DNA of 64,000 bases from an uncultured Gammaproteobacteria bacterium. GTDB taxonomy: Bacteria; Pseudomonadota; Gammaproteobacteria; JACCXJ01. Below are positions 33,562 to 50,720 of this stretch, in pieces. The first letter of the stretch is position 1; each line of letters starts with the position of its first letter. The notes below the pieces were generated by a model. That model was not told the DNA's origin. It searched no databases and saw nothing but the letters and a program-made list of their open reading frames with translations. The position numbers were made by a program, and so were the translations under genes. The stretch is from contig CAVXTM010000010.1 of the NCBI GenBank assembly GCA_963764725.1, positions 207,989-271,988 of the forward strand, in the 5' to 3' direction.

Positions 33562-36500
33562 ATGAATAATCAGTTCTTCGAAAGGCCCATTCTCAACTCT
33601 CCCTACGAGTACCCGTCTCGTTACTGGGAGCTCGATGAGCAGGGCCAGCCGACTCAGAGAATCATCGAGCGCCGCCGCCGCGCCGAGTTCATCACGCCGA
33701 TTCCGAAGCCGAAGAAAGCGCAAGGGTTCGGCTGAACAAACGTCCTTTCGTCTTCGACGAAGGCAAAGGACTCTCCACCGCAGAAGCAGCAGTACGACCA
33801 CACAGCCATCATCAATTCGAGTTCGCCAGCAGGTGGACCAGTGGCGGCGCTTGCCGAATCCCAACGACTGGCGCGTAACCCCGGAGACGGCGCGCCTGCT
33901 TCAGCACTGGCGGCATCACAAATTCAGCAGCATCCGTCCGTTCTTCTGTCAGATCGAGGCGGTCGAGACCGCCATCTGGCTGACCGAAGTCGCACCCCAG
34001 GCGGGCAAGGTGGGCGAGGGTTTTCTTGAACACCTGGCCAATGCCAACAACGACGCCAACCCGGAGCTCATGCGCCTCGCGCTGAAGCTGGCCACCGGTG
34101 CCGGCAAGACCACGGTCATGGCGATGCTCATCGCCTGGCAAACCATCAACGCGGTGCGGCGACCGCAGAGCAAACGCTTCACGCGCGGCTTTCTCGTCGT
34201 CGCACCGGGCCTCACGATCAAGGATCGCCTGCGCGTCCTGCAACCGAACGATCCGGACAGCTACTACCAGAGCCGCGAACTGGTTCCGGGCGACATGCTG
34301 GACGACGTGAACCGCGCCAAGATCGTCATCACCAACTATCACGCCTTCAAGCTTCGCGAGCGGATCGATCTTTCCAAGGGCGGACGCTCGCTGCTCCAAG
34401 GGCGCGGCGAAGAGCTGAACACCCTCGAAACCGAGGGCCAGATGCTCCAGCGGGTGATGCCCGATCTGATGGGCATGAAGAACATTCTCGTGCTCAACGA
34501 CGAAGCCCACCACTGCTATCGAGAGAAGCCGGGAGCCGATGACGAGGAAGATCTGAAAGGGCGACGACAAGAAGGAGGCCGAGAAGAACAACGAAGCCGC
34601 CCGTCTCTGGATCTCCGGCCTTGAAACCGTCAATCGCAAACTCGGCGTCGCACGCGTGATCGACTTGTCCGCGACGCCGTTCTTTCTGCGCGGCTCAGGC
34701 TATGCCGAGGGCACGCTGTTCCCGTGGACGATGAGCGACTTCTCGCTGATGGACGCCATCGAGTGCGGCATCGTCAAATTGCCGCGCGTGCCGGTGGCCG
34801 ACAACATTCCCGGCGCGGAGATGCCGATGTTCCGCAACCTCTGGGAACACATTCGCTCGAAGATGCCGAAGAAGGGGCCGAGGCAAAGCCAATACGCTCG
34901 ATCCACTGAGCCTGCCGCCGCAACTCCAGACAGCACTCGAAGCCCTTTACGGTCACTACGAAAAGACCTTCGCCTTTGGGAGAAGGCCGGAATTCGCGTG
35001 CCTCCCTGCTTCATCGTGGTCTGCAACAACACCTCCACCTCCAAGCTGGTATACGACTTCATCTCCGGCTTTCACCGGCAGAACGATGACGGCTCTAGCA
35101 CTCTTGGTAAACGGGCGCCTCGCGCTGTTCCGCAACTTCGACGAGCACGGCAACCCGTTCCCGCGGCCGAACACACTGCTCATCGACAGCGAGCAGCTCG
35201 AATCCGGCGAGGCGCTGGATGACAATTTCCGCGCTATGGCCGCCGATGAGATCGAGCGCTTCCGCCGCGAGATCCTCGAACGCGGCGGCCAAGCTCGCCG
35301 ATGAACTGCAAAAGGGGAAAGAACTCGATGATGTGACACTGCTCCGCGAAGTGATGAATACCGTCGGCAAGTACGGCCAGTTGGGCGGATCGATTCGTTG
35401 CGTCGTTTCCGTCTCGATGCTCACCGAGGGCTGGGATGCCAATACCGTCACCCACGTGCTCGGCGTGCGCGCCTTCGGCACCCAGCTCCTGTGCGAGCAG
35501 GTCATCGGACGGGCGCTGCGCCGCCAGTCCTACGACCTGAACGAAGAAGGTCTCTTCAATGTGGAATACGCCGACGTGCTCGGCATTCCCTTCGACTTCA
35601 CCGCCAAGCCGGTGGTCGCGCCGCCACAACCGCCGCGCGAGACCATCCAGGTCAAGGCGGTGCGGCCCGATCGCGATGCGCTCGAAATCCGCTTCCCGCG
35701 TGTCGAAGGCTATCGCGTCGAGTTGCCCGAGGAACGGCTGACCGCCGAGTTCAACGAAGACTCCGTGCTCGAACTGACGCCGGATCTGGTCGGGGCCACC
35801 GAAACGCAGAAACTCCGGAATCATCGGCGAGACGGTGGACCTCAATCTCGTGCATACCGGCGACGTGCGGCCGTCGCAGGTCGCTGTACGAGCTGACGTC
35901 GCACCTGGTGCTGACGCAAGTGGCGCGACGCCCGGCGAAGACCGCAAGCTGCACCTGTTCGGCCAGCTCAAGCGCATCGCCAAGCAGTGGCTCGACGGAG
36001 TATTTGGTTTGCAAAGGCGGTACCTATCCTGCGCAGCTCAAGTACAAGATGCTGGCCGACATGGCCTGCGAGCGGATCATGGCGGGAATCACGCGCGAGT
36101 TCGATCGGCGAGCGCCCCATCAAAGCCGTGCTCGATCCCTACAATCCCACCGGCTCCACGAGCACACGTCAACTTCAACACGTCAAAGCCGGATCGCTGG
36201 GAAACCGACTCCCGCCGTTGTCACATCAACTGGGTCGTGCTCGACAGCGATTGGGAGGCCGAGTTCTGCCGCGTGGCCGAATCGCACCCGCGTGTCCGAG
36301 CCTACGTCAAGAACCACAACCTCGGTCTTGAAGTGCCTTACCGTTACGGCTCGGAGACGCGCAGGTACCTGCCCGACTTCATCGTGCTGGTGGACGACGG
36401 GCACGGCGAAGACGATCTCCTGCACCTCATCGTCGAGATCAAAGGCTACCGGCGCGAGGACGCCAAGGAAAAGAAATCCACCATGGACACCTACTGGGTG

Positions 36501-36650
36501 CCTGGCGTTAATCATCTCGGGACACATGGCCGCTGGGCTTTTGCCGAGTTCACCGAGGTCTATCAGATCGAGGCCGACTTCGAAGCGAAAGTCAAAGCCG
36601 AGTTCAATAAGATGATCGAAACGTATACCGGTCGAATCGGCCCGGAGTAA
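33562..36650 (+). pseudogene. Type III-like restriction endonuclease/helicase Res subunit (BPTD_3080-like), with many frameshifts in this sequence
   Basis: Stitched frames give MNNQFFERPILNSPYEYP, LKLATGAGKT (Walker A), LNDEAHH, SATP, MLTEGWD, EQVIGRALRR and nuclease YLPDF...VEIKG. About ten or more single-base indels, which may be sequencing errors. Confidence 0.9.
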
Positions 36651-36744: not shown

Positions 36745-37035
36745 ATGAACAGAAACGAAACATTGAAACTCCTGCAAACCCACAAGCCGTACTTGGCCCG
36801 GGAGTTCGGCGTTACCGCTTTGGCTCTGTTCGGCTCCATCGCGCGCGATGTCGCGGGCGCGAACAGCGACGTGGACATCCTGATCGCCTTCGATGGCCCA
36901 GCGACATCAAAGCGTTATTTCGGTGTCCAGTTCTATCTGGAAGACCTGCTGGGCCGCCCTGTGGATCTGGTGACGGTAAAGGCACTGCGTCCGGAGCTGC
37001 GCTCCCACATCGAGCGAGAGGCCATCCATGTCTAA
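36745..37035 (+). CDS. MNT minimal nucleotidyltransferase antitoxin
   Basis: LFGSIARD...SDVDILI (GSx10DxD), LEDLLGRPVDLV. Confidence 0.92.
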   Translation: MNRNETLKLLQTHKPYLAREFGVTALALFGSIARDVAGANSDVDILIAFDGPATSKRYFGVQFYLEDLLGRPVDLVTVKALRPELRSHIEREAIHV

Positions 37036-37387
37036 TGGAGTGCGGGGCGAGCGCGAGTGGCGTTTCTACGTAGACGACATGATCGTCTTCGCGGAAAAGG
37101 TTCTGTCTTACACCAACGGATTGGATCAATCCAGTTTCGTTGCCGACGGGCTCACCTACGATGCCACCCTGCGCAACCTGGAGCTGATCGGCGAGGCGGC
37201 TACCCACATCCCCGACGCGGTGCGCGCCGCTCATCCCGACATCCCGTGGCGGCTGATCATCGCCACGCGCAACCGCCTGATCCACGCCTACTTGGGCATT
37301 GACGACGATACGCTCTGGAGCATCGTCCAGGACGACATCCCTGCGTTCCTGACGGCCTTGCAGAAGCTCAAGCAAGCCCACCAGTGA
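37028..37387 (+). CDS. HEPN (DUF86/HepT) RNase toxin
   Basis: RNLELIGEAA, IPW and the RNRLIHAY (Rx4HxY) HEPN motif; overlaps the MNT gene. Confidence 0.92.
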   Translation: MSNGVRGEREWRFYVDDMIVFAEKVLSYTNGLDQSSFVADGLTYDATLRNLELIGEAATHIPDAVRAAHPDIPWRLIIATRNRLIHAYLGIDDDTLWSIVQDDIPAFLTALQKLKQAHQ

Positions 37388-39258
37388 TGTGACCGCAACA
37401 ACGGATAGCTCTCCATGGCTAGAAACAAATCGGACACCAAGAAGACCGTCGAAACCCTCAAGCACGACGAGGCCACGCGCAAAAACATTCCGACTGCTGA
37501 ATATCAGTCGGTGATGCAGAAGCACGAGCAGGCCCCCGTCCGCGTGACCTACGAGCGCGGTGCAGCCGGGCTCGACGATGCGAAAGAGCAGCGCAACCGC
37601 GACCTCGATCCGCAGCTCGTCTGGCGCGGCAAGGACGAGCAGGACTGGAGCGACCTCGTCGTCCACGCCCCGCCGCTCTACATCCAGGAGAAGGTACACC
37701 CCAAGGTGCTCATCGACGACCTGCTCAAGCAGACTCGCGAGCAGCGCGCGCAAGAAGTCGGCGCGCAGTTCGATCTCTTTGGCGACTTCAACGGCATCCC
37801 CGAGGGCGTGGACAAGACCGAGTTCTACCAGCACGACCAGAACTGGTCGAACCGCATGATCCTCGGCGACAGTCCTACAGGTGATGGCGAGCCTCGCCGA
37901 GCGCGAAGGACTGCGCGGCAAGGTGCAATGCATCTACCTCGACCCGCCCTACGGCATCAAATTCAACAGCAACTTCCAGTGGACTACCACCAGCCGCGAC
38001 GTGAAGGACGGCAAGGCCGACCACATCACCCGCGAGCCAGAGCAGGTCAAAGCCTTCCGCGACACCTGGCGCGACGGCATCCACAGCTACCTCACGTATC
38101 TGCGCGACCGGCTGACCGTGGCGCGGGATTTACTGACGGATTCGGGTTCGATCTTCGTGCAGATCGGGGATGAGAATGTGCATCGCGTGCGGGCGGTGAT
38201 GGATGAGGTGTTTGGGGACGAGAACTTTATCGTTGCAAATCGACTTCGCCACAACGACGAGCCAAACCTGCGCAATTCGTGTCGAGTATTTCAGACCACA
38301 TCCTTTGGTATTGCAAAGGACAGATTGCAGACGAAATATCCGGGAGCTGTAGCTTTCGAAGGATCGTGAGAGGCAGGAAACATCTTCGTTTCGCGCTTTA
38401 CGAACACGATTTCGTAATCTCACGCAATCCTGCAAACGAGAATGCTCGGCTGTCGGTATTTGGTGATCTTCACTTCTCGGTCCGGCGGGGAGTCCTCAAC
38501 GGCGACCATTCCGTCTGGTTTGGCCACGACTTTATCCCGAACTGCCGGCGGAGTGGAAGACCAGCTTGGTCGGCTTAGAAAGGTTAGGGAAAGCCCATCG
38601 ACTTGGTCTACGTGGCAAGAATGCCTTCTACAAGAGATACTTCGACGATTGGCCATTTTCCCCAATGCCAAACGCTTGGACTGGACACTCAATCCGGAGG
38701 GCTCGGTGTTGAGAGCAGGATCTATGTCGTTCAGACGAACTTTAAGGTAATAGAGCGCTGCATCCTGATGACCACCGACCCCGGCGACCTTGTCCTCGAC
38801 CCGACCTGCGGTTCCGGCACCACCGCCACCGTCGCCGAGCAATGGGGCGGGTCGCCGCTGGATCACGATTGACACCTCGCGCGTGGCACTGGCGCTTGGC
38901 CCGGGCTCGCATCATGGGTGCGCGCTATCCGTATTACCTGCTGACCGATTCGCGCGAAGGCCAGATCAAGGAAGCCGAAGTGACCCGCACCGTGCCGTCC
39001 TCGCAAGCGGTCCGCGGCAGCATCCGCCACGGATTCGTTTACGAGCGTGTGCCGCACATCACGCTCAAGTCCATCGCCAACAACGTGGAGATTGACGTCA
39101 TCTGGGATAAATACCAGGCCATCCTCGAACCTCTGCGCGAGCAACTCAACGAAGCTCTTGTAGGATAATGGTATGGACTCCTCCCCTCCCTAACGGCATC
39201 GTGATGTGCCAAAGTGGAGGATGTAACAACCACTTGAACAGAAGAGGAGAAGTCCGCT

Positions 39259-40275
39259 ATGAACGTTACAACAATCGGGTTAGACATTGCAAAGAATGTC
39301 TTTCAGGCACACGGTGTGGACGGGAAGGGGAAGGTCGCGGTGCGCAAGTCGCTCAGGCGAGGGCAGGTCTTGGCGTTCTTCGCCAACCTCGACCCTTGCG
39401 TGGTAGGGATCGAAGCCTGCGCCGGCGCACACTACTGGGCGCGGGAGCTGGGGAAGCTCGGGCATACGGTCAGGCTCATCAGCCCGCAGTTCGTCAAGCC
39501 CTACGTGAAGGGGAACAAGAATGACAAGAACGACGCGGAGGCGATCTGCGAGGCGGTGGGGCGCCCGAACATGCGTTTTGTGCCGGTGAAGAGCACCGAG
39601 AGCCAAGACATTCTGGCGCTGCACCGGGTACGCAGTGGGTTGGTAAAGGAACGCACCGCGCAGGCAAACCGGCTGCGGGGTTTGTTAGGCGAGTATGGCA
39701 TCGTCATCGGTCAGGGCTTGGCGCAGGTACGCAAGCGCCTGCCGGAGATCTTGGAAGACGGCGAGAACGGCCTGAGTGGCTTGGCGCGAGAGCTGTTTGC
39801 CGATCTCCACCGGCAGGTCCTGGAGCTGGACCGGCAAGTGGGGGCCTACGGCGTCAAGCTCCAAGGGCTCTACCATGCGAGCGAGGCGTGCCAGAGGATT
39901 GGCCGGATGCCGGGGGTAGGGCCGATCACGGCGACGGCGGCCGTCGCCTCGGTCGGTGATGGTCGAGCGTTCGAGTCCGGGCGGCAGGTCGCGGCCTGGG
40001 TGGGGCTCGTGCCGCGGCAGGATTCGAGCGGGGGCAAGCCCAAGCTCCTGGGGATCAGCAAGCGGGGCGATACCTACCTGCGCACTCTGCTCATCCACGG
40101 GGCGCGGTCCGTGGTGAAGGCGGCGGCCAAGAAGACCGACGCCCAGAGCCGGTGGATCAACGACCTCGTCAAACGGCGCAACAAGAACATCGCAGCGGTG
40201 GCGGTGGAAAAGAGCTCGGGCGATCTGGGCGCTCCTGAGGCGAGACGAGGGTTACCGCGCGCGGGTTTCGGTTGA
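39259..40275 (+). CDS. IS1111-type DEDD recombinase/transposase (frameshift near the C-terminus)
   Basis: IGLDIAK, GIEAC, KNDKNDAEAI, catalytic Ser motif SSGGK. The normal tail (ARAIWALLRRDEGY) continues in another frame from about 40210. Confidence 0.94.
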   Translation: MNVTTIGLDIAKNVFQAHGVDGKGKVAVRKSLRRGQVLAFFANLDPCVVGIEACAGAHYWARELGKLGHTVRLISPQFVKPYVKGNKNDKNDAEAICEAVGRPNMRFVPVKSTESQDILALHRVRSGLVKERTAQANRLRGLLGEYGIVIGQGLAQVRKRLPEILEDGENGLSGLARELFADLHRQVLELDRQVGAYGVKLQGLYHASEACQRIGRMPGVGPITATAAVASVGDGRAFESGRQVAAWVGLVPRQDSSGGKPKLLGISKRGDTYLRTLLIHGARSVVKAAAKKTDAQSRWINDLVKRRNKNIAAVAVEKSSGDLGAPEARRGLPRAGFG

Positions 40276-40289
40276 CGCGTAGCACGCGA

Positions 40290-40535
40290 GGCCACAGGGT
40301 TTTTCACCTTCCACCCAGTTGCGAAGCATCTTTCGAAGCGATGGCAAAGCGGTCAGACCGGTGTTTTCAGCAATCCGCTCAGCGCATGGGCCTTCGAGGC
40401 CGGTAGGATGATTGAGATGAAGACACGCGGATATTCCATCGGGGCCAGAGGCATCGCAAGCCTCATTGACAGGCCGGATATATGGGAGCAACTGCGCTCA
40501 CCGACCGCTGCAATCAAAGCGAAAAGATGCTTGCA
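40290..40535 (+). ncRNA. Predicted seekRNA/bridge RNA of the IS1111-type element (ends approximate)
   Basis: CTCAGCGCAT (40378-40387; 9/10 match to the target bottom strand), hairpin GGCCTTCGAGGCC, then GTAGGATG (40403-40410; identical to the target top strand). Confidence 0.75.
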
Positions 40536-41123
40536 AATCGGGAGGAGTCCATATATGGGCTGAGGCACGAAGCCCATCAATCGCGACCGATGGGCTTCGT
40601 TCTTGCTCAGCCCATCCTACCAAGACGTTCAAACCCTTCGAAGAATGGGAGATTCCACGCGAGGTCGATGCCAAATGGCCGGACGCAGCCAAGAAGCTCC
40701 ATGCCCAATGGTGGGAACAACGCATCGCCCGCCAGCGTGAGATCGATGCGTCGATCGCCGCCAAGGCCGAGTTCGAATACCTCTACGACAAGCCCTACGA
40801 CAACAAGAAGATAGTTCGCGTGGCCGGGCCGTTCACCGTCGAGAGCCTTTCCCCGCACCGCATGCTCGGCGTGGACGAGAACGACGAATTGATTGATCGC
40901 GTCGCCGAACCCGGCGCTGACTACAGCGCCAAGCAGTCTTTTCCCCAGATGATCCTGGAAAACCTCAAAACCGCCGGCGTCCAGCAAGCACATAAGGAAG
41001 ACAAAATCACCTTCACCGCGCTTACGCCGTGGCCCGGCGATCTGGTCTGCGCCGAAGGCCGGTATGTCGAAACGCACCCCTCACCCCAACCCTTGTATGT
41101 TCTATTTTGTAGAAATTAATGAA

Positions 41124-42169
41124 ACGGGCTATCCACTTAACGCAAGTCACCGCTATATGTTGGGGTCCGGGCTGTTGACGATTTGGCGGTAAGACACTGG
41201 CGGCGTCGCCACGGCCTGTTGCATCAGGCGGTAGAAGAGAAGCCCGCGGGAGCGAGAGGTGCGCCGGTTGAAGCGAAACGTGTATTCGTCGAGGTAGTAG
41301 TCGAGGTACCTGCCACTTACCGCGCCTTGGTGAGTTCCGAGCAGCCAGCGTTTGAGCAGAGAGGCGATGCGGTGGACACCGGGCATCAGGACATGGGCCG
41401 GGTCTCCGCTGTCGGAGAGATTCGTCTTGATGCGCGTATATCCAGACTTCGTCATGTCGTTGTACCCGCCCCAGGCGTCGGTGAGAACTTCCGAACCGGG
41501 CTCAATGCTCTCGCGCACGAAAGGGACGAGATTGGCGCCGGAGGCGTCGGCCACACGTCTCATGCGCACGCGTCCAAATCCCTTCGGTTCGTGTAGTTCG
41601 ACGGCGATGACCACAATCTCCTTTCGTTCTGCTCCACGGCCACGCTTACCGCCTTTTTCGCTGCCTCCTACGAGCGTCTCGTCCACTTCAACGCGACCAT
41701 GAAGCCGCTCGCGCCCAGCTCGCACCATCGCGCGTCGCAGCTTATGCAACCAGGTCCATGCCGTTTGATAGCTTCCCAACCCCAGAACCCGCTTCAGGCC
41801 GAGAGCGTTGGCTCCATGCTTCTGACTCGTCACAAACCATATCGCCGCCAACCATGTCTTCAACGGGATACGCGTTCGCTCGAACATCGTACCTGCCGTG
41901 ACCGAGATCTCTGCACCGCAATCCCGACAATGCAGGTAACCTCGTCCCGTGATCCAGGGCGCACCGCTGGACCCACAGCGTGGACAGTGGTAACCCGCTG
42001 GCCAGCGAAGGCCCGCAAGATACTCGCGACAGCCCGCATCGTCCTCGAAAAAATCATTGAACTCGCCGAATGTCCGAGGGTAGTCGGACCCGCCGACTGG
42101 CCCTTCCCCTGTCCCCATGGGTAGCAAACACTAGATGTTGTGGTGACTTGCGTCAAGTGGATAGCCCGT
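41124..42169 (-). mobile_element. IS1595-family insertion sequence
   Basis: 28-bp TIRs ACGGGCTATCCACTT(A/G)ACGCAAGTCACC with one mismatch; 8-bp TSD TTAATGAA (41116-41123 and 42170-42177). Confidence 0.95.
41153..42127 (-). CDS. IS1595-family transposase
   Basis: Zn ribbon CPRC...CRDC, VEVDET, VLTD, YLDEYTFRFNRR. Confidence 0.95.
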   Translation of the reverse strand: MLPMGTGEGPVGGSDYPRTFGEFNDFFEDDAGCREYLAGLRWPAGYHCPRCGSSGAPWITGRGYLHCRDCGAEISVTAGTMFERTRIPLKTWLAAIWFVTSQKHGANALGLKRVLGLGSYQTAWTWLHKLRRAMVRAGRERLHGRVEVDETLVGGSEKGGKRGRGAERKEIVVIAVELHEPKGFGRVRMRRVADASGANLVPFVRESIEPGSEVLTDAWGGYNDMTKSGYTRIKTNLSDSGDPAHVLMPGVHRIASLLKRWLLGTHQGAVSGRYLDYYLDEYTFRFNRRTSRSRGLLFYRLMQQAVATPPVSYRQIVNSPDPNI

Positions 42170-42187
42170 TTAATGAAAATGTATTTC

Positions 42188-43308
<1,121 letters not shown>

Positions 43309-43700
43309 CTTTGAACACGGTTGCTCTCCCGCAAGGGGCGAGGGAGAAAAGCGGAGCGCCGCCCAAGGCTTGGAACCCTCTCCACCCAGTGGGGGGAGAG
43401 GGGAGGGTGAGGGGGGCGGAGTAGAAAAACGCGCCGCCATCTTCATCGGTCCGGAATTCGGTACCGTCACCCGCCCCGATCTGGTGGCCGCCGCGCGTGA
43501 GGCCGGCGATGCCGACTTTGACGTGCTGATCGCCTGCGCCTTCAACTACGAGGCACACGCGACCGAGTTTAGCAAGCTCGGCCGTATCCCCGTGCTCAAG
43601 GCGCGCATGAACGCCGACCTCCACATGGCCGAAGACCTCAAGAACACCGGCAAAGGCAATCTGTTCGTGATCTTCGGTGAACCGGATGTGGAAGTGGCTA

Positions 43701-44132
43701 GTGAAGAGTGGTTAGTGGATAGTGACGAGAAGAGAATCGCGCCTTATGAAATCTTTAAGCTCGTTTCGGGAGTTGATAGTCTGGCGGAAGTCAATCGACT
43801 TGGCCGTGAGGATTTACGCGACTACTCGCAGCTTTCCCACCGAGGAGAGATTTGGGATTACATCGCAAATGCGGCGGGCGGCGACCTCCATTCCGGCAAA
43901 CATCGCCGAGGGACAGGCGCGAAAAACGACGGGGGAGTTTCTGCAGTCGCTTGGCGTTGCGCGAGGATCTCTGGCGGAGCTGGAAACCTTTCTGACATTG
44001 TCCGAAAGATTGGAGTTTCTCACCAAACCGGACTCCGAGAGCTTACTCAACGCCTGCGCCGAGATCAACAAAATGCTCCACGCGCTCATGAAATCCTTAT
44101 CGACTCTCCACTAGCCACTAACCACTATTCAC
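43701..44132. mobile_element. Inverted-repeat-bounded four-helix-bundle cassette inserted in frame in mod
   Basis: 25-nt IRs at 43701-43725 and 44108-44132 (22/25 match) built from AGTGGNT heptamers; 432 nt long; the Mod frame has no stop across it. Confidence 0.8.
43746..44114 (+). CDS. Four helix bundle protein (23S rRNA IVS protein / Avd-like family)
   Basis: FRELIVWRKS, FPTEERFGITSQMRRAATSIPANIAEG, ARGSLAELET; encoded in the +1 frame inside mod. Confidence 0.93.
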   Translation: MKSLSSFRELIVWRKSIDLAVRIYATTRSFPTEERFGITSQMRRAATSIPANIAEGQARKTTGEFLQSLGVARGSLAELETFLTLSERLEFLTKPDSESLLNACAEINKMLHALMKSLSTLH

Positions 44133-44553
44133 AAGTCACTGTCCACGGCGTCGATATCTTCCACCCGCAGACCGGCGAAGTCCGCAGCGACGGCCCCGAA
44201 GGCATCGCCTGCTGGTTCATCGACACCGACTACAACGAAGAGAGCTTCTTCGTCCGCCACGCCTACTTCCTCGGTGCCAACGATCCCTACAGCGCCCTGA
44301 AAACGACCCTCAAAGCCGAGATCAACGACGAGGCCTGGGCCACCCTCAACAGCGACACCTCCCGCGCCTTCGACAAACCGAAGTCCGGGCGGATCGCCGT
44401 AAAAGTCATCAACCACCTTGGGGATGAGGTGATGAAGGTGTTCCGTGTTTGACAAAGTCCATATTGCATTGTTCTTGCGTAAAATGGATCGGCTATTGGC
44501 GATATATTGCCCAAATAATTTTAAAGACCCTTACCACATTTCACTCGACAACT

Positions 44554-45303
44554 ATGGCTAGGCAGCGGCATCTAACTCACGCACCGATTACCGAGGCACT
44601 GATCAACCTTCACGTAGAACATCGAGGTGGCCTTTCGTTTACGGCGCTCCAAGACGCGTTCAGTACTTTGGACTTCGGGTATTACTTAAAGGGGCCAATT
44701 TCCCTCGGGACTTTTGGCTTCAAACTTACAACCGATGGTCAGCAGCCGCAGACGACAGCAGATGCCACACAAATAGGACTGCGATTACATTCGTCGGATG
44801 AAAAATACGTCGCACAATGCCGGCTCGCAGGATTTACGTTGAGCCGTCTGCCGCCGTATGAGGCATGGCCGATGTTGGTTCAGGAAACGAAACGTGTCTG
44901 GTCGGTCTACAGGGACCGATTGGCCCCATTACGCGTGACTCGTGTAGCCACCCGCTTTATTAACAATCTACAACTTCCACTGGAGCACGGGGCGTCATTT
45001 CAGACGTATTTACAAAAATTTGCGGACCTTCCGGATGAAGCGCCACAGGCGGTTGCTTCGTTTTTTCAGCGCTTTCAATTGGTGGATGTCGCGAGTAATG
45101 CCTCTGTAAACTTGACTCTGGCGCTCGAATCGATGTCACCAGGCAGACCAGCGCCGGTGATTCTAGACGTTGACGCGTTCAGTTTTACGGACTTGGACCC
45201 CATGGACGATAAACTTTGGGTGATTCTTGAGCACCTGAGGACGCTGAAGAACAACAGTTTTTTTGGTAGCTTAACTGAGCGAGCAGCGGAGTTATACGGA
45301 TGA
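44554..45303 (+). CDS. TIGR04255-like uncharacterised protein
   Basis: Motifs HAPITEAL, RLPPYEAW, RVATRFINNL, ILDVDAF, LRTLKNNSFFGSLT recalled from this family. Confidence 0.8.
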   Translation: MARQRHLTHAPITEALINLHVEHRGGLSFTALQDAFSTLDFGYYLKGPISLGTFGFKLTTDGQQPQTTADATQIGLRLHSSDEKYVAQCRLAGFTLSRLPPYEAWPMLVQETKRVWSVYRDRLAPLRVTRVATRFINNLQLPLEHGASFQTYLQKFADLPDEAPQAVASFFQRFQLVDVASNASVNLTLALESMSPGRPAPVILDVDAFSFTDLDPMDDKLWVILEHLRTLKNNSFFGSLTERAAELYG

Positions 45304-45848
45304 GTTTAGCCATTGCAATTGGTGATTCGCGTCTAGCTTGGGAGTTTGACTATGAACCCATTACAGACAGTAGTCGCGAGATTCAGCGGGCGTGGGCGCA
45401 GAAAAGAAATTACCTGCAAGGAAGCGCGTCAGATTGGTTTCCGACTACAGAAGCAGCTCTTGGTAACATTAAAAAAGAGTGTGGCAGGACGGACTGGGAC
45501 GGCAGTGGCGCGATTCCAGTGAGTGATCAAGTGATCGATCTTGCGGCGGAAATTGTAGGATCGTTGTTTACGATACTGCCCCGAGGCACACCGGCGCCTG
45601 ATCTCATACCGGAAGCTGACGGGGAGATTTGTCTAAGCTGGTCCATTGATGCCAGCCGGTTATTTTCATTGAGCGTGGGCGCGCACGACAAGATCAATTT
45701 CGCTGGTCAGTTCGGCAAGGAGGGCGGTATTCATGCCTGGCAGCCGATTGATGCGACGAGTCGCAGCAGTCTTGAAAAATCTCTTCAAGACGCTGCTCGG
45801 TACATTGGGCGTCTCTACGCGCCGGCTACCATTAACCGTAAGTCCTGA
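45300..45848 (+). CDS. Hypothetical protein (DWDGSGAIP and PDLIPEADGEICLSW motifs)
   Basis: 182-aa ORF coupled to the upstream gene by an ATGA overlap. Confidence 0.7.
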   Translation: MSLAIAIGDSRLAWEFDYEPITDSSREIQRAWAQKRNYLQGSASDWFPTTEAALGNIKKECGRTDWDGSGAIPVSDQVIDLAAEIVGSLFTILPRGTPAPDLIPEADGEICLSWSIDASRLFSLSVGAHDKINFAGQFGKEGGIHAWQPIDATSRSSLEKSLQDAARYIGRLYAPATINRKS

Positions 45849-47197: not shown

Positions 47198-50100
47198 ATG
47201 AAGATTAGTCACATCAAGCTCTCCGGATTCAAGTCCTTCGTCGATCCGACCACGCTGCATCTGTCCAACAATCTTACCGGTATCGTCGGTCCCAACGGTT
47301 GCGGTAAATCGAATATCGTCGATGCGGTGCTTTGGGCGATGGGCGAGATCTCCGCCAAACACTTACGCGGAGACTCGATGGCGGATGTCATCTTCAATGG
47401 TTCCAATAGCCGCAAACCCGTCGGTCAGGCCACGGTCGAACTGGTGTTCGATAACTCCGAGGGCGGCTTTCTCGGCCAATACGCGGGGTACGCGGAAATC
47501 GCCATCAAACGGCAGGTCACCCGCGATGGCGGATCGGATTACTTTCTCAACGGCGTACGTTGTCGGCGGAAAGACATTACGGACCTGTTTCTAGGCACGG
47601 GGCTCGGCTCGCGCAGCTATGCCGTCATCGAGCAGGGGATGATTTCCCGGGTTGCGGAAGCCAAACCAGAGGAGTTGCGGGTGTTCATGGAAGAGGCGGC
47701 CGGCATCTCCAGATACAAGGAACGCCGGAAAGAGACCGAGGCTCGGATCCGCGACGCTAAGGGCAATATTGGTCGGCTCACCGATATCCGCGACGAGTTG
47801 GAAAAGCAGAATCTCCAAGCTCCAGCAGCAAGCGCGCGCCGCCGAGAAGTTTCAGCGCTTGAGAGACGAGGAACGGCGGTTGCGGGCGGAATCGATAGCA
47901 CTTACCTACCGCCGGCTTGAGCGCGAAGGCGACGAACACCGCTTGGTGACTCAAGCGCGGACGTTGGCCGTGGACGCCGCGATGGCGCAACTTCGTGAGA
48001 TCGAGCTCGGGACAGAGCAGACCCGTCAGGCCAGAGCCGCGGCGAATGACGGTTTTAATCAGGTGCAAGCGCGGTACTACAGCAGCGGAGCTGAAATTGC
48101 GCGCTTGGAGCAAGCGATCCAGCACTCCAAGGATCGCCAGCAGGCCTTGGAACAGGAACTGGAACGCCTCGGACAAGACCTTACGCGGGCGGAGGGGCAA
48201 ACGGTTGCGGACGCGGAGGCGTGTGCAAGCTTGAAAACGGAGATCGAACACCTCATCCCGCAGCATGGGCGCGCATCAGCGGAAGAGCGGGAAGCCGGGG
48301 CGCGGCTGCTTGCGCAAGAGACCCAGCTGCAAACACTGCAAACGGCGTTGGATACCCATGGCGCGGAGGCGACGCAGCTCTCCCGCGCCGAGAGCGCGGA
48401 GGGCGCGCACGTCCAACACTTAAGCCAAAGCCTCGGAGCGACTCGCGAGCGGCTGCGGGGGTTACGGTCTGACCTCAGTGCCTTGGCGTTGCGGGAGGAG
48501 GTTTCGTCCCTGGATTCGCTGAGCAGCGATCTCGCCGCGCTCGAATCCTACTACCAGGACTTGCAAGCGCGCAAAGCCGAGTTTCAGGCCTCGATCCGAG
48601 AGTTGCGCGAGCGACGCGATTGCCTCGGCAGTGAATTAAATGAGTTGCAGACCAAGTTGCAAGCCGCGATCGGACGGCGGGCGGCGTTGGAAGCGTTACG
48701 CGATGGCCAGGCGGGGGTTGATCTCGGCGCGGCGCGTGGCTGGCTGGAATCTCAAGGGGTCGTGAACCCCGGGCGCGTGGTCCAGGAGCTTGCCGTCGAT
48801 CCAGGCTGGGAGGTAGCCCTGGAGATGGTCCTGGGTGACTTTATTAATGCTTTTATATTCAAAGAAATTGATAGTATTTCTAATAAATTTGATACCTACG
48901 GCCAAGGGCTGCTCTGTGCCCTCGAATCGGCGGATGGCGAGTGCAAAGACAGAGGTCCGGAACCTCTTGCCGCAGAGTTATTGCTGAGCCGGGTAGGAGG
49001 ACCGCATCCCATCACCTGTCTTCTGGGCGGCGTGTATCTCGCCGAAGATGTGCCGGCGGCGCTGTCCTTACGGCCGCGTTTGCGCTCCGGGGAGTCGGTC
49101 GTGACGCGTAGCGGCGTGTGGCTCGGCTGCAACTGGATGAAATTGAAGCGCGCGGAGGGCGAAGACGGCGGTGCCCTGCGCGTGCAAAAGGACCTCAATG
49201 CCGCCTTGGAATGCGAGCATGGTTTCGCGGACCAGGGCGATGGGTGCGCGGCGCGCATGGCCGGCACGCGGCAGGCGTTGGCAGAAGCGGAGGAAGAACT
49301 CCGATCGCTGGAAGAACATCTCATCGATGCGCAAGGGCGGATCGGGCGTGCAAGGGAAAAGATCGCGGTGCGTCAGGCGGAACATGAGCACATTCGGATG
49401 CGGAACGAAACCCTGGGTGCGGAGTTGCGTGGGCTCGAAGAACGCGATCGAGCCGGCACGGCCGAGCTCGAGGCGGCGGAGGTTCGCTTGGAATCGATAC
49501 GCCGGGACCTCGACGCGCTCGAAGCCCGGCGGGCCGAGATCGCCACGAGCCGGGAGCAACAAAAAGCGCTGTTGCAAGGGGCGAAGGACGAGTGGCAAGG
49601 CGCTCGCGAACGCATGCACGAGATGGCGCTGCGGCTGGAGTCGATGCGCACCCGTTGCAGATCCCTAGAGCAAAGCTTTAACCGCAATCGCCTCCAAGTC
49701 GAGCAAATGAACGTGCGCCGCGACGAGTTAAAGGCCGCGCTCGGCCAGGCCGCGCAGCCCCGCGATGATCTCACGAAGGCGTTGCAGCAAGCCTTGGAAG
49801 AGCGGCTAGGGGTGGAAGCGGAGCTGGCTCAAGCGCGCGCGGACCTGCAGGCGCTCGATGCCCATCTGCGGGAGGGCGCGGAGCGTCGCGCCGAGACCGA
49901 ACGCGGCCTTCAGGGACTGCGCGATGTGCTCGAGCAAGCACGCGTGCACGAGGAAAGCTTGCGGGTGCGGATGCAGACCCAGCACGACTTGCTCGCTCCG
50001 ACCGGTCATACAATGGAGCAATTACTGCCCGGCCTCCCCGCCGAGGCCGATCCAGCCGCTTGGCAAGAGCGTCTAAGTCACGTCGAGCAGCGCATCGAGC

Positions 50101-50720
50101 GGCTCGGTCCCATCAACCTGGCGGCAGTGGACGAGTTCCAGCAACTGAGCGAGCGCAAGAAGTACCTCGACCATCAACACGCCGATCTTAGCGAAGCGCT
50201 GGCGACCTTGGACGACGCCATACGGCGGATGGATCGGGAGACGCGCGGGCGGTTTAAAGAGGTATTCGAGGCGGTCAATTTGCGCTTACAGTCGATGTTC
50301 CCGCGGCTCTTCGGCGGCGGGCAGGCCTATTTGGAGCTGACCGACGATGATCTCTTGGCAACGGGAATCACGTTGATGGCGCGCCCTCCGGGCAAACGCA
50401 ACACGACGGTGCATCTGCTCTCGGGCGGTGAAAAGGCATTAACGGCGCTCGCATTAGTGTTTGCGATCTTCGAGCTCAACCCGGCGCCGTTCTGTCTCCT
50501 CGACGAGGTGGACGCGCCCCTCGACGATGCCAATGCCGTGCATCTTTGCGACATGCTGCGCGCGATGTCGGAGAGCGTGCAGTTCCTATTCGTGACCCAC
50601 AATAAGACCACCATGGAGATCGCTGAACGCCTTATCGGGGTCACCATGCAGGAAGCGGGTGTCTCACGGCTCGTGGCCGTGGATATCGACGCAGCGGTAC
50701 GGCTGGCCGCAACGGCGTGA
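47198..50720 (+). CDS. smc: Chromosome segregation protein SMC (one apparent +1 frameshift near 47810)
   Basis: [14 protein letters not shown], coiled coils, hinge, [15 protein letters not shown]. Two ORFs join at GAAAAGCAGAATCTCC. Smc-zipA-ligA synteny. Confidence 0.95.

Follow-up and report, generated by a model that had tools for sequence, protein, structure and literature searches.

Can a gene be lodged inside another gene on the same strand without silencing either, and what kind of element would do this? The question is raised by a 64,000-nt stretch of the genome of an uncultured Gammaproteobacteria bacterium (GCA_963764725.1, contig CAVXTM010000010.1, positions 207,989 to 271,988 of the forward strand), hereafter the window. 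Here a small gene for a four-helix-bundle (4HB) protein, bounded by inverted repeats, is enclosed by a reading frame of mod, the putative DNA-methyltransferase gene of a type III-like restriction-modification (R-M) system. We consider it probable that the enclosed segment is a 4HB hairpin cassette of the kind known as intervening sequences (IVSs) of ribosomal RNA (rRNA), tolerated within Mod by read-through translation, and dual-coding with both readings under selection.

The cassette and its conserved nesting

The cassette spans 43693-44140 (448 nt), contains an intact 122-aa 4HB gene and leaves the mod frame free of stops throughout. An earlier note, made from the letters of the window alone, had described a 432-nt segment bounded by 25-nt inverted repeats of AGTGGNT heptamers; the cassette and its heptamer arms stand, with their dimensions corrected to 448 nt for the cassette and 44 nt for each arm. 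Its parts are as follows.

43693..43736, plus strand: left arm, an array of AGTGGNT-type heptamers, whose host-frame product contains ..VASEEWLVDSDEKR..
43724..43736, plus strand: purine-rich tract 10-22 nt 5' of the 4HB ATG, a possible ribosome-binding site
43746..44114, plus strand: 4HB gene (122 aa plus stop), assigned by profile match to PF05635 / TIGR02436, +1 relative to the mod frame
43697..44134, plus strand: host-frame read-through of the cassette, 146 stop-free codons between mod residues ..EPDVEV and VTVHGVD..
44097..44140, plus strand: right arm, the complementary heptamer array, whose host-frame product contains ..SPLATNHYSQV..

The mod frame is open over 43280-44452, with GEPDVEV preceding the insert and QVTVHGVD following it. 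The two arms are 80% complementary, with a best ungapped core of 32 nt holding 4 mismatches. Over 38 loci, arm complementarity is 0.84 in register and remains at 0.67-0.69 when the arms are shifted by 7 nt in either direction, falling to 0.20-0.34 at shifts that are not multiples of 7; because it stays high only at multiples of 7, we conclude that the arms are built of 7-nt units. The predicted RNA fold of 43680-44150 reaches -180.5 kcal/mol (z = -4.53), and none of 100 shuffled sequences was as stable.

The open reading frame (ORF) of the 4HB gene runs from an ATG at 43746 to a stop codon at 44112-44114 that falls within the right arm. Positions 1-105 of the 106-position PF05635 profile align to its product at E 1.5e-38 (131.7 bits against a cut-off of 33.8), and the product also matches TIGR02436 at E 1.3e-38 (131.5 bits, cut-off 24) and NF008911 at 143.5 bits (cut-off 137). 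The complete 4HB protein and the purine-rich leader that the earlier note had recognized in the +1 frame are both present. GGAGG-like tracts are frequent at the corresponding position 5' of the 4HB ATG in relatives. As had also been noted, the 448 nt of the cassette hold no transposase. Comparison of filled with empty sites, made by inspection rather than as a formal test for target-site duplication, showed the tip of a hairpin replaced and no obvious duplication. The genome has no PF05635 gene other than this one, and arrays of the cassette's heptamer occur in the cassette and at one other place, the latter not in cassette form.

Relatives of the 4HB protein are 66-95% identical to it among the best 120 of 2244 matches, and bear names from many phyla. 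A scan by 4HB similarity, taking one genome per species, provided 80 loci (L002-L081), giving with the window 81 4HB ORFs for study; L049 and L056 were dropped for flanks that are too short. Inverted heptamer arrays flank the 4HB gene in most loci, of the AGTGGNT type in one clade and the AGTTTTN type in another. In 56 of the 81, the 4HB ORF lies inside a plus-strand frame that spans the whole cassette, and in all 56 the relative frame is the same, the host codon beginning 2 nt after the 4HB codon. All but one of these (55/56) occupy a single site, EPDxxV | ... | QVTVxGVDVF, of a homologous protein of 1000-1200 aa. In intact relatives this protein matches PF01555 at E 3e-31 to 6e-30 and the PADLOC model MTase_III PDLC03632 at 1321-1730 bits, and these profile matches identify the host gene as a type III-like Mod methyltransferase. 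Carriers fall under 18 phylum labels. The earlier note had reasoned that an insertion would be doubtful if Mod homologues natively contained the segment; in a sense they do, with at least 8000 database proteins matching the region and the best 120 spanning the insert completely, yet they contain it as the same dual-coding cassette.

Free cassettes, those found outside mod, sit between ORFs of the same strand, that is, in operon spacers. One free 4HB clade, from Caldilineaceae (L035, L039, L042, L047, L048, L058 and neighbors), has no arms of the AGTGG or AGTTT type within 90 nt; it is bordered on each side by recurring AACTGCAGT and GGTCAG words, possibly another type of arm.

Arms made of 7-nt units bring to mind a phase-variation switch, in which slippage by one unit would shift the mod frame and turn the methyltransferase on or off, as in other type III mod genes. 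One unit does alter the frame by one, the number of arm units differs between relatives, and phase-variable mod genes are well established. We nevertheless regard such a switch as highly improbable: the units are imperfect copies and hence poor substrates for slippage, the same arms flank free intergenic cassettes where no frame is at stake, the extra stretches in intact genes are whole 7-residue blocks corresponding to three units (L026, L028 and L114), and the conserved gene between the arms would be left unexplained. A fusion of Mod to the 4HB frame through heptamer slippage was separately rejected, as the left arm carries a TAG (43713-43715) in the 4HB frame.

Openness and selection in both frames

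To our knowledge, bacteria very rarely have same-strand overlapping genes that are fully nested, exceed 100 codons and are conserved across phyla. The criterion of a spanning frame is circular for a test of openness, and loci were accordingly regrouped by mod-flank homology; the host frame is open in 49 of the 50 loci with mod flanks on both sides. Within the 4HB ORF, host-frame stops number zero in each of the 56 nested copies, as against 4-17 in the third frame. A null model that permutes synonymous codons predicts a mean of 3.0 stops for nested copies, with a median probability of 0.024 for none. Copies outside mod serve as a natural control, and 22 of 24 have at least one stop in the equivalent frame. 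Openness beyond chance, which the earlier note had proposed to look for among intragenic cassettes, is thus found in the collected set. For the window copy alone the picture is more modest: the Mod frame is indeed stop-free for about 146 codons, and the probability of roughly 0.001 first attached to this gives way to 3.2% of 500 synonymous permutations (mean 2.6 stops). The window copy by itself is mildly unusual, and the weight rests on its relatives.

Selection on the two frames was estimated by an OLGenie-style count, with 57 sequences (400 pairs) for nested copies and 24 sequences (63 pairs) for free ones. In the 4HB frame dNN/dSN is 0.17 in nested and 0.16 in free copies, which is to say that this frame is under strong purifying selection of equal strength inside and outside mod. 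In the host frame dNN/dNS is 0.71 in nested copies (bootstrap 0.55-0.92) and 1.24 in free copies (0.88-1.94); host-frame read-through is weakly but measurably constrained, and only when nested. The ATG of the 4HB gene is retained in 55 of 57 nested copies.

The long stem raises the alternative that the insert is dealt with at the level of RNA, either excised by RNase III, with or without religation, or bypassed by the ribosome, so that Mod is made without it. The build of the cassette matches that of the rRNA intervening sequences that RNase III excises (PMC4990558); the predicted stem is stable (z = -4.53); and the heptamer type of both arms switches jointly between clades. A host frame that is stop-free in 56/56 nested copies and under purifying selection would, however, be needless if the insert were removed, which favors translation straight through it. 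Mismatches in the arms show no bias toward G-U pairs of the sense strand (of 221, 43 are of the sense kind, 39 antisense and 139 other). Stem-bounded spans in 46 nested relatives have no preference for multiples of three, with 11, 20 and 15 in length classes 0, 1 and 2 mod 3, and from arm to arm the window copy measures 448 nt, a length of class 1; the earlier observation that exact removal of the stem-bounded segment keeps the frame is thereby uninformative. Excision of rRNA IVSs is not followed by ligation (PMC4990558), and two copies with a decayed 4HB gene (L127 and L174, described below) retain the host frame. We consider removal or bypass of the insert at the RNA level very unlikely. Of the two routes that the earlier note had offered, this one loses its footing, and tolerance of the insert as a protein loop is the supported variant, the host frame being open beyond chance in nested copies.

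Of the public sequencing runs, none contained more than 0.40 of the sampled words, and the RNA runs contained 0.06-0.08. Contigs built from two DNA and two RNA runs had high cover on the mod flanks and low cover on the cassette. Four joints skipping 463-526 nt all came from relatives 85-90% identical, with 61 letters in the one joint that showed any, and these are read as empty-site alleles of other organisms rather than as splicing.

What the host-frame reading would look like as protein was modeled with AlphaFold2. For the 466 C-terminal residues of an intact carrier (63 aligned sequences), mean pLDDT was 72.7; the peptides encoded by the arms are predicted to pair as an antiparallel beta-stalk, and pLDDT is 85-96 over the first ~50-60 insert residues. 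The insert modeled alone (52 aligned sequences) gave a pLDDT of 74.1 and a pTM of 0.71, with a disordered middle. The module model is not a copy of the 4HB fold. A Foldseek search of the PDB with both models returned nothing at E <= 0.001, a wide structural alignment search with VIA-align reached a best Z of 3.1, and the insert profile had 0 matches among PDB sequences at E <= 1. A folded host-frame module is at this point an unproven prediction.

Empty sites, other hosts and separate histories

If the cassette is an insertion, mod alleles lacking it should exist, and the search for them proposed in the earlier note was successful. Empty mod alleles are up to 78-90% identical, and include a Mod encoded on a Pseudomonas avellanae plasmid that is 78% identical to the window fragment and has a short hairpin tip at the cassette site. 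Plasmid homologues align to filled Mod in two pieces, skipping the insert. Among 401 genomes of the window's phylum, 22 have a match to the Mod C-terminus; the cassette is in 0 of the 17 other Mod places with both flanks, where the gap measures 52-91 nt against 481 nt in the window. The sequence of the empty site, EPDIDILDAEDGQVRVKVNGVDVF, is read as a beta-hairpin in which the cassette takes the place of the turn, making the hairpin tip the insertion point. A hairpin of the nucleic acid is not a likely target, as ten empty sites folded no better than their shuffles (z -1.55 to +1.20) and had no common structure.

A second phylum was searched by the Mod C-terminus alone. Here 56 of 401 genomes (including two unpublished ones) had a match, and 29 loci were analyzed. 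Of the 27 with both flanks, 5 are filled, 21 are empty and one, L127, is decayed. All 5 filled loci combine a full-length 4HB match with an open host frame. L127 has a 384-nt in-frame insert in which the host-frame peptide is recognizable and the 4HB ORF lacks its start and middle.

The hairpin tip has also received other material. Two plasmid Mods have extra stretches there that are unrelated to the cassette (L082 6750-6874 and L083 5882-6111), and the span between conserved flanking blocks is ~28 residues in L082 and ~80 in L083, whereas ~10 is typical of empty sites. The tip looks like a general insertion hot spot. In five assemblies of the window's phylum (L098, L101, L102, L106 and L107) the first bases of a contig already encode part of the Mod C-terminal domain: the match begins at residues 31-39 of a 105-residue query, ~90-115 nt past the cassette site. 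Two of these genomes hold a full copy elsewhere.

Nesting is not confined to mod. A profile of the host-frame module was searched against 401 genomes with stops read through, an approach able to detect only the one relative frame (d=2). It hit 38 places, 26 with 1-7 stops and 12 without. The 26 stop-bearing places are free 4HB genes read in the wrong frame. The 12 stop-free places comprise five type III Mods, L127, three DUF1156 methyltransferase genes, two Eco57I-like genes and one false match. In the DUF1156 genes (L171-L173), an intact 4HB gene in the same relative frame, bounded by AGGAAAT-type arms, lies near residue 200-250. The Eco57I-like genes (L170 and L174, ~1510 aa) have GGGGAAT-type arms near residue 1280. 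In L170, a gene of 1509 aa, the nested 4HB gene is intact; in L174, at the same site, the 4HB gene has an internal stop and the 1510-aa host frame is open. The false match, L175, was rejected as a nested case, its long open frame starting inside the cassette and belonging to the downstream gene.

Against 1.84 billion cluster representatives, the module profile matched 405 proteins at E <= 0.001. Eco57I/MmeI methyltransferase domains were found in 11 of the 16 long representatives scanned, with the module before or after the catalytic domain. In one, P0364, the module sits at a site different from that of its relative L170; sorting 150 profile matches to three reference hosts by blastp was unreliable where the module alone aligned, and was used for P0364 only. 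A predicted protein of 2729 aa, P0353, has the module at residues 2274-2381 and no Pfam family at E <= 1e-4, and is a possible case of a cassette nested in a non-methyltransferase host.

The segment is a discrete cassette made up of arms and 4HB gene; it is found with and without mod, and mod with and without it. A tree of the Mod flanks (69 rows) requires 9 switches between the filled and the empty state, and well-supported branches make at least 5 of these unavoidable. In a tree of 4HB proteins (81 rows), copies borne by mod are mixed with free ones, and no fewer than 3 changes are forced. Arm type changes once on the 4HB tree as against four times on the Mod tree, and constraining the Mod flanks of AGTTTTN cassettes to one group costs 347.6 log-likelihood units (approximately unbiased (AU) test, p-AU 0.0011). 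In the close Mod alleles L110 and L111, the 4HB genes share 77% and 54% identity with that of the window, and across the closely related alleles L111, L121, L078 and L062 this identity is just 52-58%. Arms and 4HB gene therefore travel as a unit, which has been exchanged between Mod lineages by insertion or recombination.

These data bear on a simpler history, in which a single ancient insertion has been inherited vertically with mod as the R-M system crosses phyla, with repeated precise losses, the cassette being immobile now and never having targeted mod. All mod carriers do share an identical site and frame, the deep splits of the 4HB and Mod trees broadly agree, and the window's genome has one copy with no other heptamer arrays in cassette form. 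Against this history stand the four changes of arm type on the Mod tree versus one on the 4HB tree, together with the rejection of a single Mod clade by the AU test; the divergent 4HB genes of the close Mod alleles; the free cassettes placed among mod-borne ones; and the independent nestings in DUF1156 and Eco57I-like genes, which in one Eco57I-like family occupy two sites. Part of the conflict could nonetheless stem from recombination between mod alleles, and we view a single insertion as unlikely.

The decayed copies bear on a different alternative, overprinting, in which function resides in the host-frame module, as an additional domain of Mod, and the nested 4HB ORF is silent, persisting because it is young or is constrained through the other frame. 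L127 retains a recognizable host-frame peptide beside a decayed 4HB ORF, and L174 an open host frame across a 4HB gene with a stop. Selection on the host frame is measurable, AlphaFold predicts the module with confidence in part, and the homologous S23p of Coxiella is reported to be probably untranslated (PMC4990558). In contrast, constraint on the 4HB frame is the same in nested and free copies (0.17 and 0.16) and far above that on the host frame (0.71), the ATG persists in 55/57 nested copies, and a full-length 4HB match is present at each of the 5 filled loci of the sample drawn without regard to 4HB similarity. We judge that overprinting with a silent 4HB gene has little chance of being the explanation.

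Proposed explanation, the window locus and known systems

The account that we prefer, a dual-coding cassette tolerated by read-through, would work as follows. The cassette is lodged at the tip of a predicted surface beta-hairpin of a type III-like Mod, with ~110 residues left before the C-terminus. A ribosome translating Mod would read straight through it, and host-frame translation of arms and 4HB gene together would add a module of ~150 residues on a beta-stalk. The 4HB protein would start at an ATG of its own, in a phase one base downstream. Because selection keeps both readings, the stretch would be truly dual-coding, with both products presumably translated. The arms may be the cassette's cis-acting sites for spread, possibly bound by a ring of 4HB proteins; a pentameric ring is known for this family from a Xanthomonas structure (cited in PMC4990558). 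We favor the idea that nesting in the methyltransferase of a restriction system would protect the cassette, because any frameshift or imprecise deletion would destroy Mod and leave the cell open to attack by its own restriction enzyme.

A broader proposal is conceivable, and we advance it only tentatively: that 4HB hairpin cassettes are widespread selfish elements specialized for R-M genes. They would survive in methyltransferase genes by read-through in the only alternative frame from which stops can be eliminated, shielded by the host restriction enzyme, with the 4HB ring recognizing its own heptamer arms to drive copying and the read-through peptide sometimes kept as an overprinted methyltransferase domain after the 4HB gene has died, as in L127.

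Several points weigh against the read-through account. L002-L081 were picked by 4HB similarity and are biased to intact 4HB genes, the unbiased, Mod-based sample has just 5 filled loci, and most sequences are metagenome-assembled. The selection signal in the host frame is weak (0.71), the sequence pairs behind it are non-independent and the bootstrap was over codons only. The group constrained in the AU test was chosen with the tree already in view. The module model matches no known fold, and the AlphaFold confidence could reflect covariation carried over from the 4HB reading of the same bases. At ~10-13 nt, the distance between the purine-rich tract and the 4HB ATG is rather large. The RNA libraries matched held, as contigs, distant relatives with mostly empty sites, so that expression of both products is presumed from sequence; and the authors of work on the Coxiella rRNA IVS conclude that the homologous S23p is probably not made in vivo (PMC4990558). 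The "addiction" rationale, finally, is something we infer.

In the window itself, the host genes are decayed, a status absent from the earlier note's account. Decay was mapped by tblastn of the res, mod and exonuclease proteins of the L082 plasmid against the window, and the pieces are these.

33562..36623, plus strand: decayed res gene, homologue of the L082 "BPTD_3080 family restriction endonuclease", its match scattered over three plus-strand frames
37415..41074, plus strand: earlier mod pseudogene fragments, with frame changes near 37874, 38848 and 38900 and a poor match at 38249-38642
between 39171 and 40631: IS110-family insertion in mod, between mod residues 590 and 588
41153-42127, minus strand: IS1595-family transposase ORF, within the mod span
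42361-43308, plus strand: second IS110-family transposase ORF, within the mod span
43427..44452, plus strand: last mod pseudogene fragment, residues 737-958 of the L082 plasmid homologue, with an open frame through the cassette

In all, mod is represented by nine tblastn pieces over 37415-44449, in three plus-strand frames with frame changes, which cover residues 1-281 and 360-958 of the L082 Mod; the IS1595-family and second IS110-family elements split residues 733 and 737. The type III res and mod genes of the window are pseudogenes, and because of this the window cassette is a recent relic, with its 4HB gene intact and the local host frame still undecayed. The earlier claim that the element enters protein genes without inactivating them is fair for the family, in Mod, DUF1156 and Eco57I-like genes; in the window, where the host gene is dead, the cassette no longer has anything stealthy about it.

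Other features of the neighborhood are noted for completeness. Three transposase genes lie within the mod span (39259-40275, 41153-42127 on the minus strand, and 42361-43308), the two IS110-family genes differing from each other. Between the decayed res and mod, an intact two-gene pair occupies 36745-37387: a 96-aa ORF (36745-37035) with a nucleotidyltransferase-like GS..D.D motif, which suggests an MntA-like protein, shares 8 nt with a HepT-like ribonuclease gene (37028-37387, PF01934 E 2e-27). On plasmids, this Mod family belongs to a three-gene set of "BPTD_3080 family restriction endonuclease," methyltransferase and "3'-5' exonuclease" (L082 1212-9272, L083 1-9125), and the "3'-5' exonuclease" matches UvrD/GajB-like helicase models of PADLOC. 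The genes 3' of the window's mod (44449-45848) matched no Pfam family. An SMC-like gene at 47198-50720 is divided between two ORFs that overlap and differ in frame (47198-47920 and 47652-50720), which suggests a frameshift or a sequencing error near 47650-47920.

Though a relic in a pseudogene, the window copy led to a general pattern that is testable. Dual coding is measurable here because the same cassette outside genes provides a clean natural control. The pattern extends the long-unexplained rRNA intervening sequences, and the S23p/Avd-like proteins, to protein-coding genes of defense systems, ties bacterial heptamer repeats to a specific protein family, and points to a route by which selfish DNA may donate new protein modules. 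It also matters for annotation, as gene callers fuse or split such methyltransferases and may drop one of the two products. In full-text literature searches, no paper turned up that describes a 4HB/IVS cassette within a protein gene; supplements may mention one.

Inteins and bacterial group I and II introns are selfish elements; the gene that they enter continues to work, and homologous genes are occupied repeatedly at one site. The cassette resembles them in both respects and differs in that they are spliced, whereas the cassette is apparently translated through. Pfam scans of four full host proteins (E <= 0.01; no Rfam search was made) found no Hint/intein or intron-encoded families; they returned PF01555 and three weak methyltransferase-family matches below cut-offs.

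Among the closest likenesses are the ORF-bearing IVSs of 23S rRNA described for Coxiella burnetii (in helix 45) and for Leptospira, Xanthomonas and Brucella (PMC4990558). PF05635 is common to both, sizes are similar (428/444 nt for the IVSs, 448 nt for the cassette), and in both, terminal inverted repeats enclose an ORF and form a long stem. A hairpin tip is replaced in each case, an rRNA tetraloop in the IVS and the tip of a protein beta-hairpin for the cassette, and each has a patchy distribution that suggests horizontal transfer (PMC4990558). They differ in location, the IVS lying in a 23S rRNA helix (9, 25 or 45) and the cassette in the coding sequence of mod; in fate, the IVS being excised by RNase III while the cassette has an open host frame and evidence for read-through; and in their stems, which are heptamer arrays ~84% complementary in the cassette and a nearly perfect 28 bp in Coxiella (PMC4990558).

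Avd, the accessory protein of diversity-generating retroelements (DGRs), belongs to a family with a homologous four-helix-bundle fold (PMC10053308). The window's 4HB protein scores below cut-offs against Avd models (31.1 against 40 for bAvd PF22296, 28.3 against 80 for NF033474). We rejected a DGR on this NF033474 score and on the lack of any RVT_1 match on the window's contig, the genome's 8 being on other contigs; template and variable repeats were not searched.

Rickettsia palindromic elements (RPEs), also among the closest likenesses, and other intragenic miniature inverted-repeat transposable elements that make in-frame fusions are like the cassette palindromic selfish DNA that sits in frame, is translated with the host protein and occupies fold-compatible places (PMC10969869). 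RPEs are ~150 bp long and lack a gene of their own (PMC10969869), whereas the cassette has a conserved, selected 122-aa gene in another frame, is found in 18 phyla, and has as its identified hosts the DNA-methyltransferase genes of restriction systems.

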